The notes under the pieces: model-generated
What the model was told of the DNA's origin: nothing
Seen by the model: the letters and a program-made list of their open reading frames with translations, nothing else
Databases searched by the model: none
Shown: positions 4,386-11,343 of the stretch, one piece after another
How the letters are laid out: every line of letters starts with the position of its first letter
How positions within the stretch are numbered: the stretch's first letter is position 1
From: a virus
Lineage: Duplodnaviria > Heunggongvirae > Uroviricota > Caudoviricetes
Direction: 5' to 3' (one strand)
IMG/VR virus record: IMGVR_UViG_2684622670_000001
Coordinates: 1-13,110 of that record
DNA length: 13,110 bases
Made by a program: the position numbers and the translations under genes

Positions 4386-5841
4386 ATTCAGATTCCATCA
4401 TGTGGTATGGGCTGGCCTTATCCGACTGGCGCATGCTTCTTATTGCATCAAGATCGAACACGCCAGCTTCGGCATAGTTCTTGTCAGCCTCAGACTGATG
4501 TTTCATGATCTCGGCTTTCTCTGCTTCTGTAAGCTCATACAGAGGCAGGAACTCAAAATCAATGTCAGGGTCAATCTCGCCAAATTCGTTTAACTGGATA
4601 ACATCCAGTACTGTTTTCAGTGGTACTCTGAACAGATTCTCCTGCATGGCGTGGATTGAGTCATAGAAGACGCGGATTTCTCCATCAGATGACGCGTTTA
4701 GCCCGTTAGGAGTGATGCCAAGGAGCTTAACCAGGGGAATGCTTGATACCGATGCCATTTGTTCCTGCGCTTGCGCCTGAAGAGCATCAACTCCGGACAG
4801 ACTTGTCACAAACTGGAAGAATTCTTCTCCATCCTTATCAATAAGGAACATTCCGCGATTGTCGCGAACCTTATTGAATAGCTCGGCACGCATAAACAGG
4901 TTTGGGTCTGCAATTCCAGACAAGGCATTCTGCATGTTCGTCTTCAGCCCGTGGACCACAAACGAATGAACCAGATCGCTAACGCTGTCACGTGTTCTCA
5001 GCCAGTTCTGCACATATGGCTCTGCCATCTGACTCAGCGACAAGCCGCCGAAGTTGTACGCCGCTTTGAGAATGTCTGGCACCTGGCGAGAAATCATTGT
5101 CAACATGCGACTGGCGTGAACCGTGCGCCCCATGACATACCATTCAGATGGATTGAAGAAGTCAGGGCTTAGAGGATTGTCAGCGTTATACACGCCCGGG
5201 TAAGTCCACATGGCTTCGATAACGCGGAAACCATTCAGGCTTCCTTTGGTAATCTTGCGCGGACTGATATAGAGCTTCTTATCCAGTTCGTCGGGAACCA
5301 GCCAGGCTGAGTTACCGCTTGGCGTCTTCACGTCGATATAAATCTGTCCGCGCCCGAAGTAACCGTCATGTTCCGCCGCCTCGCGAAACTTCTCTCGCAC
5401 TCTGAAACGCTTTAATGCGTCGTCAAGCTGGCGAATCTTATCGGCCTTGTCGTCACCATCGTCTTTACCTACATGCTTCAGCTCAATCCATTTTCGCGTC
5501 ATCTCTTCTGCTATCGTGCCAGTAATCTTGCGATACTCCGGCAACTGAGCAAGTTGAGACAGATATGGGTAGCCGGGAAATCCACCGTAGCCATATGCGG
5601 TGATGTTTGCTGAGTTAAGGTAACTGTACGGCGTGGAGTCCATCGCCAGAGCTGACTCCCCAATATGTTCAGGAATAACGCCTGGCGGGGGTACGTATCT
5701 CTCAATTCTGCGCAATGCCTCGCCTTCATTTTTAATTCGCTCCTGTTCGTTAATAATCGCAAGAACATTCGCCAGAGACATTGGCTGTTTCGCCTCTTCT
5801 TTCTGAGGCTCAGATTTTTTCTTTCTCAAAAAATTAAACAC
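4306..5841 (-). CDS. Portal protein (DUF1073-like), ~511 aa
   Basis: Large ORF immediately downstream of the large terminase gene, with an acidic C-terminal tail. The longest ORF starts with GTG at 5841 (GAGG ~8 nt upstream); the first ATG is 20 codons downstream at 5781. Confidence 0.7.
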
Positions 5842-7361
5842 TATGCGAGCCTCAAAAGGTCTTCAGATATACGTAACGGACCATTGCCATTTTTCATCTC
5901 ATCGATGGCATCCATCATCGGATCAAGCTGGTCGTCGTGCGTATTGAAATCAGGATTAATGGCTTCCATCTCAACGAGGAAGTCGTTGATGAATGGTGCG
6001 CTGCTGGGCAACTTGATGTAACCGGACTCGATATAACCCTGTACGTCCATCAGTCGTGTGTACTTATCCTTATCGCGCTGAATTGCTTTGATGGGGCATA
6101 TCGCTTTTTTTCGGATGTTCTGTATCAGGCCTGTGCCAGATGACTTGTCCTCTATCGCCATATGGCGAAGCGGCCCATTCTTCAGAGTTTTGCACTTTTC
6201 CCAGAATGCAACAGCACGGCGTTGTAATTCATCGGCCTCCCATTTACCGCGAATCATATCGATCAGATAGATGTACCCGTCAGTACCAAGCCCCCAGTGC
6301 TCGAATACTGAGAAGTCGTTGACCTCTTTTGTTTTCTGTGCGGTGTCTCCATAGACGGCACGCCATTGCATGGGAGGGAGTACCGAATATTCACCAAACC
6401 ATTCAGACTTAATAAGCCCCCCGCCTTTGGCGGTTGGTCGTTGCTGATAAAGGGCATTCCATACAAGAGAACCGCGCTGTTTGCACTTCTCTACGAACTC
6501 TCTCGGCATGCGCTCAGGAAACAGAATTTCACCGGGATTGCGCAGTCGATACACATTACCGTTGAGTTCATGAATCTCTTCCTTTTCAGCCTCCATTGGG
6601 AAGCTAACTACGCGCCAGCGTTCCCCGCCCTCTTCAGCTAGTTTTAATAACTGTCCGGCGAGATCGTTTTGATGCCAGCGTGTCAGGATGATGACAATTC
6701 CGTTTATCTTCGGGTCAACACGAGTGAAGAATGTCGTGTCATACCAGTCCATCACCGCTTCCTGGTAAGTTGGAGACGATGCGGTTTTGTAATCTTTCGC
6801 GGGGTCATCAATAACCCCAATGTTCATACCCTGCCCGGTGATGCCACCGTTAACACCAGCAGAACGATATGAGCCGCCGTGTAGTTCGCCTTTGGCATCA
6901 ACTGGTTCCCATAGCTCGGTTTTGTTGATACCTCCCGCCAAACTGCGTCCTGAAGGTATTTTCACGTCAGGGAAAACATCAGCGTACTTATCAGAGGTGA
7001 TAATGCGTTTAACGTCACGGCTCATTCGGTCTGACAGGTCAGAAGAATATGAGCACGAGATAATGTTCCATGATGGATGATGTCCTAACACATACGCTGG
7101 GAAGCGGCGAGAGCACAACTCACTCTTTCCTGAGCGCGGAGGGGCAAACACCATTAGCCTGGGCATGTTTCCGGCTTTAACTTCATCCAGAAAGTGATCT
7201 AGCTCAGCACAAAGCAGCTCGTTAAACCAACCTGTTTCGTATTGCGGATTAGTGTACAAAGTGAAATCGAGAAGGTTTTTTCTTGCTGAGCGGATAGCCA
7301 GCTCTTTGTGCAACTCATAAATCTGAGCGTTTCGATTCAAGCTGATTGGAGCGCCTGCCAT
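5841..7361 (-). CDS. Terminase large subunit, ~506 aa from the first ATG
   Basis: Walker A-like '[10 protein letters not shown]' near the N-terminus; size ~500 aa; follows the small terminase gene. First ATG at 7361 is preceded by AAGGAA; the track ORF begins with TTG at 7367. Overlaps the small terminase 3' end by ~47 nt. Confidence 0.8.
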
Positions 7362-8036: not shown

Positions 8037-8240
8037 TCATTTTTTCCCTTTCTGTTTACCTGCCCACTGTTTTGCAATGTACAGGCAGTCATCGAAAATT
8101 CGGCCTTTTCTGCTGGCTTGTGAACAACGGCGGTAATGTTCCACCGCCATGTCAGCGCCAGTCATAGCCGCGTTTTGGTCGTATCCAAGCTTTATTAACT
8201 CGGTTGTTACATTTTTATGTATGAAATCAATCGGAGTCAT
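8037..8240 (-). CDS. Hypothetical small protein, 67 aa (accessory cassette, second gene)
   Basis: ORF with ATG at 8240 overlapping the upstream gene stop (ATGA), suggesting translational coupling. No family recognised. Confidence 0.5.
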   Translation of the reverse strand: MTPIDFIHKNVTTELIKLGYDQNAAMTGADMAVEHYRRCSQASRKGRIFDDCLYIAKQWAGKQKGKK

Positions 8241-8833
8241 GCTGGTTTACCATCAGGGAAATCCCCCATGTCACATAGCTTGAACTGAATCAGATCCTTC
8301 ACAAGCTGCTCAGCCTTTTTAATGGCCCTCTTCTCTTTCTTCCGACGAGTCATGAGAGCGCTACCTGCTTGACCGTGCATTTCAAATGAGAACTTCTCAG
8401 CAGCCGCGACACGGTTTTGCATTTCGCTGATTGCCATATCGGTCAGGCCAGAGAAATCGAGGAGGTTAATGTCCTTCCCACCCTCAAGCTCAGTCATGTG
8501 GTCATACACCTGCGCCTGAAGCTCATAGCTGTAGCTCATTGCCATGAGGCAAGCTTCACGCTTGGGAAAATTGCAAATATCCCTCTCCACAACACCACCT
8601 GTTCCGTTGATATAGGTATCAGTTGCAAAAAATTTTGCAGCTGCATCCCCGAGAACCTTGGGTACTTTCTTCATGAAACTGCGGTGTTCGAGTTTGCGAT
8701 ATTTCTTACAGGGGAACGCAAGCCCCTCCGCCTCCGCTTTGGATTTCCGATCAGCATTAATGTAATCCACCATCTCAAGACTGCTCATGGTCGGGTATTC
8801 GCCAGAAGGAAGAACGGTTAATGATTTGTTCAT
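8237..8833 (-). CDS. Putative Rha-family-like phage regulatory protein, 198 aa (accessory cassette, first gene)
   Basis: ORF with ATG at 8833 and AAGGAA ~8 nt upstream. N-terminal region ('TMSSLEMVDYIN ... KLEHRSFMKKVPKVL ... REACLMAMSYSYELQAQVYDHM') loosely fits the Phage_pRha pattern as I recall it. C-terminal ~90 aa unassigned. Confidence 0.45.
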   Translation of the reverse strand: MNKSLTVLPSGEYPTMSSLEMVDYINADRKSKAEAEGLAFPCKKYRKLEHRSFMKKVPKVLGDAAAKFFATDTYINGTGGVVERDICNFPKREACLMAMSYSYELQAQVYDHMTELEGGKDINLLDFSGLTDMAISEMQNRVAAAEKFSFEMHGQAGSALMTRRKKEKRAIKKAEQLVKDLIQFKLCDMGDFPDGKPA

Positions 8834-8978
8834 GTCGGTATTTCCTTTAGAAAGTTGAGCCTGTTCGCACAGAAAAGCCGTCCCCGAGAGGTCCTCACCT
8901 ATACGGCAGTTCTCAGGCTCAGCTTTCTGAAAGACTCGGGATTGTTACGCGCTGCGATACGCTGTGAAATTCAGATGT

Positions 8979-9003
8979 AAAAAAAGCCCCGCATCGCGAG
9001 GCT
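8979..9003 (-). terminator. Intrinsic terminator-like hairpin plus U7 downstream of Rz
   Basis: Minus strand reads AGCCUCGC-GAU-GCGGGGCU followed by UUUUUUU: an 8-bp stem (one G-U pair) with a run of seven U. Confidence 0.5.
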
Positions 9004-9034
9004 CATTAAATTGACTTTGTGATTTGCAAAAAAA

Positions 9035-10252: not shown

Positions 10253-10578
10253 GTCTTACCCCCGATAAGGGGATTTGCTCTATTTAATTAGGAATAAGGT
10301 CGGTTACTGATAGAACAAATCCAGGCTACTGTGTTTAGTAATCAGATTTGTTCGTGACCGATATGCACGGGCAAAACGGCAGGAGGTTGTTAGCGCAACC
10401 TCTTGCCACCCGCTTTCACGAAGTCAGCCATTGCGCTGGTTTTCTTTTATGCAAAGCACACCGCACCGTAGCCACAGCGGATAAGGTGATTGTTTTGTAT
10501 GCTTTGTGTTTGGTTGATTATGTATTTCAGAAATGTTGTGCTAATGTTGTCATTCATATAAAGAAGGATTAAACACAA

Positions 10579-10758
10579 ATGAATGACTTTGACACAAGAA
10601 GGCTCCACGCAATCCATATGTTACTTCAAGAGATCTCTGATAAAACCTTGCAAATAGCCATGTCAACGCACTCTGATGAAAACAAGAAAAGTCTTATCAC
10701 ACCACTAATGAAAAGACATGCGGATCTAGTCGCTGAATTTCAGGAACTATTGAAATAA
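10579..10758 (+). CDS. Candidate small ORF (59 aa) on the opposite strand within the Q-S intergenic region
   Basis: ATG at 10579 preceded by AAGAAGGA (spacing ~10); 59 codons ending in TAA; lies in an AT-rich stretch that does not overlap any minus-strand gene. Just below the 60-aa cutoff of the supplied ORF track. No family recognised. Confidence 0.35.
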   Translation: MNDFDTRRLHAIHMLLQEISDKTLQIAMSTHSDENKKSLITPLMKRHADLVAEFQELLK

Positions 10759-10761
10759 TTA

Positions 10762-10789
10762 AATACCCACACAGAGATACGGGGGTATT
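10762..10789 (-). terminator. Hairpin (AAUACCC ... GGGUAUU) with U-rich 3' side on the minus strand; candidate tR'-like terminator of the late leader transcript
   Basis: 7-bp perfect inverted repeat with a 14-nt loop, followed on the minus strand by UAAUUAUUUC. It lies at the 3' end of the lambda-like 6S-leader segment and immediately after the stop of the plus-strand 59-aa ORF. Confidence 0.35.
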
Positions 10790-10949
10790 AGTTACCACAT
10801 TAGCAACTTTATTGCGTCAATATTTGCAAACCTCTCAGCCCGCGATGGTTGGAGTTCCAGACGATACGTCGAAGTGACCAACTAGGCGGAATCGGTAGTA
10901 AAGCGCCGCCTTTTTTCATCTCACTACCACAACGAGCGAATTAACCCAT

Positions 10950-11114
10950 CTATCCCATACTGGAGAATTCACCATGATATTTTATCCTGGCATTTTCCAT
11001 TGCCTTTCTAGCCTCCTCGATATCGTCAAAACACCCTACATGAATCCTCCATGTAAGAATTCCAGTATCTGGATTGTAATTAAAAAGTCTCAATGCATCT
11101 TCACGTTTTAACAT
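10950..11114 (-). pseudogene. Degraded HNH-AP2 homing endonuclease remnant (54-codon ORF)
   Basis: Translation 'MLKREDALRLFNYNPDTGILTWRIHVGCFDDIEEARKAMENARIKYHGEFSSMG' joins an HNH_3-type N-terminal motif ('LFNYNPDTGILTW') directly to an AP2-type C-terminal tail ('GCFDDIEEARKAMENARIKYHGEF'), with no catalytic core between them. Sits in an AT-rich insertion with a weak RBS. Confidence 0.45.
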
Positions 11115-11300
11115 AGGCGAACCACATAGATATTAGAGCCTGCTGACATAGAAATATCACCACGAGAGAAGTCGCCAAAAGCGATATTTCTCAGGCTCTA
11201 TTCCTATGTGCTCTCGAGTTTATGATGCGCATGTCAGTGCGCTTAGAACTTAAAGATGAGGTGGGTAAAAGCTGAAAGAATGTGAACGGATATAAATCTG

Positions 11301-11343
11301 CCATTCTTGGGTCAAATTTACCCAACTTTATTCAAATAGTCAA
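11301..11343 (-). promoter_or_regulatory. Late promoter pR' with qut/Q-binding region and promoter-proximal pause element
   Basis: Minus strand reads TTGACT (11343..11338), a 17-nt spacer, TAAATT (11320..11315), then TGACCCAAGAATGG. This closely matches the lambda pR' sequence as recalled (TTGACTTATTGAATAAAATTGGGTAAATTTGACTCAACGATGG). Located ~45 nt downstream of the Q stop. Confidence 0.75.

Follow-up and report, generated by a model that had tools for sequence, protein, structure and literature searches.

A structured leader RNA and the probable remnant of an endonuclease cassette in the late leader of a lambda-type phage

Results

Organization of the late promoter region

The window, by which we mean the entire stretch of 13,110 nucleotides of viral DNA that was analyzed, carries on its minus strand a lambda-type Q gene, relatives of which are annotated as antitermination protein, followed by the late promoter pR' and a lambda-type late leader that is interrupted by a block of 350 bp (Table 1). 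Read along that strand, the -10 hexamer TAAATT is followed by TGACCC, by AAGAATGG (11308..11301) and by CAGATTT..., after which the sequence is not that of lambda; +1 of the late transcript is placed as in lambda pR'. The elements of a pR'/qut site, namely the -35 and -10 hexamers, the Q-binding spacer and a -10-like hexamer at +1..+6, are all present in the arrangement TTGACT-17-TAAATT. The +16/+17 pause site of lambda and the terminator tR' are both absent, as the sequence from +9 onward is that of the block and the tR' region is replaced by the segment 10424..10822.

Table 1. Features of the late promoter region and of the second RNA locus, with their positions in the window.
Feature	Position	Strand	Evidence
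Late antiterminator gene Q, lambda type, 207 aa	11386..12009	(-)	ORF list; Pfam PF03589 Antiterm, E 5.6e-56
Late promoter pR': -35 TTGACT (11343..11338), 17-nt spacer, -10 TAAATT (11320..11315)	11315..11343	(-)	Promoter scan; collinear with lambda pR'
Late transcript +1..+8, AAGAATGG, with -10-like element, in place of lambda AACGATGG	11301..11308	(-)	Comparison of filled and empty sites
350-bp non-lambda block, probable remnant of a 683-bp cassette	10951..11300	(-)	BLAST against lambda, E. coli genomes and phage records
5' leader segment of the cassette, 58 nt	11243..11300	(-)	Alignments; homologous to the early late leader of lambdoid prophages L138, L139 and L140
Structured leader RNA, copy 1, 120 nt	11123..11242	(-)	Covariance model R1, 115.6 bits, E 2.7e-27; fold z-score -3.5
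Remnant ORF of HNH_3 + AP2 endonuclease, 54 codons	10950..11114	(-)	Residues 1-21 fused to the last 33 residues; PHROG 99 'HNH endonuclease', E 7.6e-14
Terminator-like 11-pair hairpin plus TGTTTTG, made where the deletion joins two inverted-repeat arms	11034..11058	(-)	Terminator scan
Deletion junction, between imperfect direct repeats AGAATCC / AGGATTC of the intact gene	11042..11048	(-)	Overlap of BLAST pieces against L001
Resumed lambda-type late leader (GATGGGTTAATTCG…), lambda 44590-44716	10823..10950	(-)	BLAST, 96% identity
Structured leader RNA, copy 2, diverged	8844..8962	(-)	Covariance model R1, 61.9 bits, E 6e-14, full model length
Empty pR' site contexts: AACGATGGGTTAATTCG; TGACYCAACGATGGGTTAATTCG			Lambda-type pR'

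Pairwise BLAST against lambda (NC_001416) aligned window positions 11400-11301 with lambda 44495-44594 and positions 10950-10823 with lambda 44590-44716, the latter at 96% identity. The two matches are collinear and have five lambda bases in common, so that exactly the 350 bp between them lack a lambda counterpart, as had been proposed for this leader from the letters of the window alone. In 30 records of lambda-like phages, including lambda itself, the stretch covering these flanks measures only 195 bp, so that these are empty sites, and the proposal thus also withstood the comparison with lambda and its close relatives that could have overturned it. A blastn search with the block found no match in 50,697 phage records, and the diverged copies of the RNA that we describe below were found later, by the covariance model only; filled sites did come to light in 16 complete E. 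coli genomes. The description of the block as AT-rich holds only mildly, its G+C content being 40% compared with ~50% in the flanks.

Further along the late strand, a second non-lambda segment of 399 bp (10424..10822) stands for lambda 44717-45014, including tR'. It contains a 59-aa ORF on the plus strand (10579..10758; phrog_3719, unknown function), antisense to late transcription, and a terminator-like hairpin on the late strand at 10783..10766.

The intact cassette and its endonuclease gene

The full form of the block, to which we refer as the cassette, is present at exactly this position in 16 of the 5,426 complete genomes of E. coli and in ~11 viral contigs of IMG/VR, and it also occurs in metagenome contigs. 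Both halves of the window block are matched in the 16 E. coli genomes, spread there over 671 bp and annotated as 'HNH endonuclease'. The intact cassette measures 683 bp and is composed of the 58-nt leader, the 120-nt structured RNA and the gene of a 163-aa endonuclease (~190 nt of leader and an ORF of 492 nt). At locus L001 this gene lies between Q and the holin gene, with junctions identical to those of the window. The intact 163-aa protein (WP_000919140.1) matches Pfam HNH_3 (E 5.7e-17) and AP2 (E 5e-8), and an HNH nuclease domain is therefore present in the L001 allele; it is absent from the window copy.

Homologous genomes thus differ by presence or absence of the cassette at one defined site. 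The complete E. coli set holds lambda-type pR' at 1,331 places in 1,201 genomes, and 17 of these (~1.3%; the 16 intact cassettes plus a decay form, L002) are filled now or were filled formerly. Looser motif patterns retrieved no further viral loci, only four E. coli metagenome contigs and two chance matches. The copies in E. coli are nearly identical to each other, and the direction of transfer hence cannot be read from them.

Relatives of the endonuclease were found by tblastn in 3,810 phage records, many of them annotated as homing endonuclease, the best being 46.6% identical. A large protein collection yielded closer homologues at 86, 74, 66, 62 (Xenorhabdus bovienii) and 56% identity, whose genes lie ~250 nt downstream of the Q gene (in L143, of a cut upstream ORF), behind the same RNA, and precede the lysis genes wherever the contig extends that far. 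As even the homologue at 56% identity is placed in this way, location behind the late promoter has been retained through considerable divergence. We had considered that these homologues follow a different family of Q, and this was rejected, as the window Q is itself a PF03589 protein and theirs are longer and diverged. From about +9 onward the block can be aligned with late leaders that are native to other lambdoid prophages; these prophages have pR'-like promoters and a longer PF03589 Q, and the promoter of one of them (L140) is clearly homologous to lambda pR'.

Junctions of filled and empty sites

All 24 filled sites carry AAGAATGG and all 122 empty sites carry AACGATGG, which means that +1..+6 reads AAGAAT in every filled site and AACGAT in every empty one. 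The difference lies at +3/+4, GA in the filled and CG in the empty state, and it is never separated from the insert; among the empty sites of IMG/VR, none has AAGAAT and at least 120 have AACGAT. Hence the unit starts at +3, with its left boundary at +2/+3, and brings its own GAATGG. The two bases could represent an immunity polymorphism or could merely be insert sequence.

These comparisons alter how the ends of the block are to be read. The original prediction had a clean insertion at +8 with ATGG duplicated at both junctions. The motif is literally present at both, but the left copy belongs to GAATGG, which is found only with the insert and is CGATGG in empty sites, and the unit begins not at +8 but at +3. 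The two ATGG copies are hence not a duplication of the target, and we reject target-site duplication, as the left copy is not lambda target sequence. The microhomology that had been suggested at the junctions is there at the level of bases only. At the right joint, the stop codon TAG of the ORF abuts GATGGGTTAATTCG. In a diverged filled allele (L138) the ORF continues through ATGGG into the lambda-like leader and there is no second copy of ATGG, so that the right joints of L138 and L001 differ.

Filled sites are spread over at least 12 haplotypes of the promoter, eight of which are also represented by empty alleles. Variants located 3-4 bases further upstream (GACCC, GACTC or GACCA) and in the spacer between -35 and -10 are shuffled among filled and empty sites, and the breakpoints lie within a few bases of the insert. 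The exact 24-mer of the left junction was absent from species-representative genomes. One lambda-type pR' locus that was fetched has a third type of sequence after the promoter (AACGAATGGATAAAT…), neither lambda leader nor cassette. It was also observed in alignment A6 that the endonuclease ORF ends in ~25 nt (GGTGAATTCTCCAGTATGGG; window 10950..10990) with a weak resemblance to GGTAAATTTGACTCAAC…GATGGG of pR', a likeness that may be due to chance or to the alignment itself.

Decay of the cassette

Compared with the intact gene, the window copy has lost 327 bp, an in-frame deletion of 109 codons that removes residues 22-130 and with them the nuclease core. In Pfam searches the 54-aa ORF that remains has no match to HNH_3 and retains a weak AP2 tail, and small ORFs of the block gave sub-threshold matches only. 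A single IMG/VR contig (L009) shares this deletion junction, which was seen at no site in the 5,426 complete genomes. With its nuclease core deleted the window copy is unable to home, and by its sequence it is a remnant rather than a member of the free-standing HNH homing endonuclease genes. The hairpin that the deletion created is a possible new promoter-proximal terminator.

A second, independent form of decay is seen in L002 (2493..2640) and L005, in which the first 107 nt of the block are fused at TAGAGCCTG, a 9-bp repeat, to the right arm of lambda tR', after which come genes for tRNA-Asn and tRNA-Thr and a class II holin.

A conserved structured RNA in the leader

When the spacers between Q and the HNH gene were aligned, the ~120 nt upstream of the start codon proved to be better conserved than their surroundings, and about one third of the 350-bp block is accordingly a conserved structured RNA. 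The fold that we propose consists of a hairpin P1 (GCGY…RCGC), a long hairpin formed by Pa and Pb with a small hairpin Pd in its apical loop, and two pseudoknots. In PK1 the P1 loop pairs with a bulge that separates Pb from Pa on the 3' side of the long hairpin, and in PK2 the linker 5' of Pa pairs with the apical loop.

Over 31 distinct sequences, 97.8% of the cells of the proposed helices are paired and 10 pairs show double changes. None of 500 shuffles reached the observed percentage paired, the counts of compensatory changes or the covariation score, and controls slid along the alignment pair in 32-51% of cells. RNAalifold recovers the nested part unaided, and in the model-fitted alignment compensatory changes affect 21 of 39 nested pairs. 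The pseudoknots were counted on hand-extracted segments of fixed length, as alignment A3, which was made with the model, places the pseudoknot strands wrongly in diverged copies and contains two spurious rows. On these segments 99.5% of cells are paired, versus 82% in shuffles, and three of the five pairs of PK1 and three of the six of PK2 covary, with one pair taking all four Watson-Crick forms. Among the diverged copies PK1 exists in seven sequence versions, in all of which the two strands are complementary, and PK2 in several; an eighth PK1 pair, CCGCA/UGCGG, is read from the sequence of P22. The frequent G-U pairs fit the sense strand only.

Taking the motif to be P1, Pa, Pb, Pd, PK1 and PK2 in the sense orientation before a late-operon start codon, both window copies match the model over its full length. 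Rfam 15 gave no match at the gathering threshold anywhere in the window, and nothing credible over either copy at E values up to 10. Comparative analysis gives good support to the leader RNA as a structured element that is widespread in lambdoid late operons, is not among the catalogued RNA families and is present twice in the window.

Gene contexts of the RNA

The second copy in the window lies after the Rz terminator (a terminator-like hairpin with T-run is found upstream of it at ~8978..9004 on the minus strand) and before a 198-aa Ant-like ORF (8833..8237; phrog_63 anti-repressor Ant / phrog_26415). Lambda-type prophages, P22, HK446 and Stx phages commonly show the same arrangement. The R1 model finds dozens of copies after Rz in lambda-type prophages, as well as those of HK446 and P22, and blastn with copy 2 matched 145 phage records, 73 of them Stx2a-converting and the others from phages of Salmonella, Klebsiella, Enterobacter and other hosts, almost none of which is annotated at this place.

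A 20-mer from the RNA block occurs at 23 loci in Xenorhabdus genomes and in 25 viral contigs. The usual order in the Xenorhabdus prophages is endolysin, terminator, RNA, a variable gene (Rha, P22-antirepressor-like or HNH endonuclease) and Rz/Rz1. In P22, HK446, Stx phages and Xenorhabdus prophages the RNA stands before Rha, Ant/KilA-N or HNH genes, and the start codon lies 8-14 nt downstream of it. The Shine-Dalgarno sequence lies within the basal helix in most copies and just 3' of the helix in P22, so that simple sequestration of the Shine-Dalgarno sequence is not universal.

Discussion

Origin of the block

The block is, in our view, probably the decayed remnant of an accessory-gene cassette that settled in the initially transcribed region of a lambda-type late promoter. 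We propose that the cassette would have originated in a lambdoid phage whose promoter was related and pR'-like, and would have entered lambda-type phages by recombination, with the left joint at +2/+3 in conserved promoter-proximal sequence and the right joint at the ATGG(G) microhomology. The stop codon of the endonuclease gene abuts lambda +4/+5. It would then have spread among lambda-type late promoters either by gene conversion stimulated by the endonuclease or by ordinary recombination. In this mechanism the AAGAAT of the cassette itself replaces AACGAT, so that the sigma70-dependent pause would still be inducible, and the Q-modified polymerase would read through the cassette into the lysis genes. 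The nuclease would subsequently have decayed through a 327-bp in-frame slippage deletion between imperfect repeats, with loss of the HNH core, and decay of the nuclease is the usual fate of selfish genes of this kind. The leader RNA would be a separate functional element that is common to many cassettes, whether these carry Rha, Ant/KilA-N or HNH genes. The insertion itself puts a selfish gene of a familiar kind in a place that is new for it, and in the window this gene is already dead.

How the cassette moved is less clear than what it was. The "homing-type" character that was originally predicted finds partial support in an endonuclease gene of the homing type, in a polymorphism at a fixed site and in the occurrence of filled alleles on at least 12 haplotypes; against it, the window copy has no nuclease core, and an exchange of modules fits the data too. 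In such an exchange, to which we assign a substantial chance that nevertheless falls below even, a crossover in shared pR' sequence together with an illegitimate joint after the stop codon would have moved leader, RNA and gene as one, with subsequent reassortment by phage recombination and with the endonuclease as a passenger. The L140 promoter, with its homology to lambda pR' and a leader that aligns with the block from about +9, speaks for such an exchange; the RNA heads Rha, Ant and KilA-N genes at another site of late operons, which argues that cassettes can move without a nuclease, and the unequal right joints of L138 and L001 also fit. The "insertion" may accordingly be a module swap whose left part is the late leader of another phage family, and recombination, which is ordinarily frequent among lambdoid phages, could account for its spread over promoter haplotypes. 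Endonuclease homologues with as little as 56% identity nevertheless keep their position after Q, as a site preference would have it, and the many haplotypes with breakpoints a few bases from the insert resemble the outcome of short co-conversion tracts, although neither of these observations is decisive.

A cassette remnant is also to be weighed against readings that see something other than decay or other than a cassette. The remnant might have been kept for a new role, the leader RNA or the deletion-made hairpin and its U-tract serving the constitutive pR' transcript as a terminator close to the promoter or as a regulatory RNA, in the manner of lambda 6S RNA or StxS. Short RNAs derived from pR' can indeed be regulatory, according to the material on them in PMC7547250, and the loss of lambda tR' from the window, the 11-pair hairpin with TGTTTTG at the junction and a deletion that is in frame and leaves the RNA intact all agree with such a role. 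We consider it unlikely, given that the deleted form recurs in a single other contig and in no complete genome of the 5,426, that the hairpin as read from the sequence includes 3 G-C and 3 G-U pairs and has a poor U-tract, and that another terminator-like site is available at 10783..10766. An element resembling a transposon or IS that duplicated its target ATGG would explain the motif at both ends and little else: the cassette has no transposase ORF and, to judge from reading its sequence, no recognizable terminal inverted repeats of transposon type, the left ATGG stands in GAATGG against CGATGG of the empty site in every case, and filled allele L138 has no second ATGG, which together make this reading very improbable. 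We give still less credence to a group I or other self-splicing intron that would carry a homing endonuclease ORF and be spliced from the late leader. A structured RNA does adjoin an HNH ORF and the block does end in G, but no Rfam intron family scored at E values up to 10, the stop codon of the ORF is the last triplet of the block and leaves no 3' intron core, and elsewhere the RNA stands before ordinary genes that lead directly into Rz. A group I intron in particular was rejected, as a core on both sides of the ORF is absent and Rfam intron matches are none.

Late transcription through the filled promoter

In lambda pR' the -10-like pause-inducing element needs A at position 2 and T at position 6, and the sigma70-dependent pause is needed for loading of Q. 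As read from the sequence, the AAGAAT of filled sites retains both bases, and Q loading therefore probably survives in the filled promoter, even though sequence of the block stands in place of the lambda pause site at +16/+17. The terminator scan predicted no terminator-like site between pR' and the ORF of the block, from which we infer that the intact gene would be transcribed from constitutive pR' even in lysogens, and that late transcripts of the window would carry the block, as the original prediction had it.

Among regulatory sites, the late promoter of lambda with the pause at which Q is loaded is a textbook example. In E. coli, ~1% of lambda-type late promoters put up with a selfish cassette of 683 bp that separates the pause-inducing element from the pause site. 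The filled promoters are thus natural variants on which the sequence needs of Q loading can be tested.

Relation to known systems

The closest parallel to the endonuclease gene is provided by the free-standing HNH_3 + AP2 homing endonucleases of T1-like, T5-like and Xanthomonas phages, which have the same domain architecture and size, the same polymorphism at one site and the same decay by deletion. The gene described here differs from these in that its best phage relative is 46.6% identical, that it travels with a conserved structured leader RNA, that its homing activity is a predicted one and that its site is inside lambda qut, between the pause-inducing element and the pause site, rather than in a gene or at a gene boundary. 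With respect to position, the leader corresponds to the lambda pR'-tR' leader (6S RNA) and to StxS of Stx phages as presented in PMC7547250, each being an RNA of the constitutive late promoter upstream of the Q-controlled terminator. It is, however, unrelated to them in sequence and structure, and is interrupted at +3..+9 with tR' replaced.

A literature search for a pR' leader that contains an HNH gene, or for an RNA motif ahead of rha, returned nothing except P22F, an 89-nt RNA species from sequencing (P22 21,301-21,389) that is treated as an uncharacterised read cluster without known function in the relevant part of a 2026 report (PMC13397905). P22F (5756..5844 of our P22 locus, L187) corresponds to the 3' two-thirds of the P22 copy of the motif, where it coincides with the long hairpin, plus 8 nt beyond its 3' end, and the hit of our model in P22 (21,259-21,381) starts ~40 nt upstream of it, thereby adding P1 and a strand of PK2. 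The passages on P22F in PMC13397905 give no structure, family or conservation. Taken as they describe it, P22F shows that the P22 copy of the RNA accumulates during infection, and its 5' end, which falls inside the Pa helix, hints at processing. The P22 paper (PMC13397905), in its discussion of P22F, proposes as an analogue the IsrK leader of the Gifsy-1 isrK-orf45-anrP operon, likewise an RNA that directly precedes a prophage operon of the antirepressor type; the Rfam isrK model, however, matches neither window copy at E values up to 10 and we see no evidence of homology.

A possible role of the leader RNA

The leader RNA is of more interest than the insertion itself, being an uncatalogued RNA that in P22, HK446 and Stx-converting phages fronts genes, rha and antirepressors among them, whose control is poorly understood. 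Our best guess, made with low confidence from the position of the element, is that the RNA acts in cis on the mRNA and controls the translation or processing of the downstream gene. More specifically, we put forward as a tentative idea, which we would not yet call likely, that the 120-nt RNA belongs to an undescribed cis-regulatory class that heads interchangeable late-operon cassettes (as in P22, HK446 and Stx phages) and gates their translation or processing in response to a factor or ligand, and that its conserved sequence may also serve as a recombination handle for the movement of cassettes, including movement into lambda qut.

The element also bears on existing annotation. In P22 (AF217253; L187 5714..5850) and HK446 (JQ086372; L186 5577..5702) the annotated starts of ORF201 (rha) and HK446_058 (KilA-N) lie inside the RNA element. 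Both phages have an ATG with a Shine-Dalgarno sequence 3' of the element, and relatives annotated by PGAP start ~10 nt after it, so that the deposited starts of ORF201 and HK446_058 are probably ~70 nt too far upstream.

Copies of the element are also found in three Xenorhabdus contigs. Two of these (L147, at ~78x coverage, and L163) are stand-alone contigs of 1,253 bp, and in a third (L152) a 1,253-bp stretch ends a contig of 9,253 bp; X. bakwenae has three chromosomal copies of the element. The lysis-cassette region seems to be a multi-copy repeat across resident prophages.
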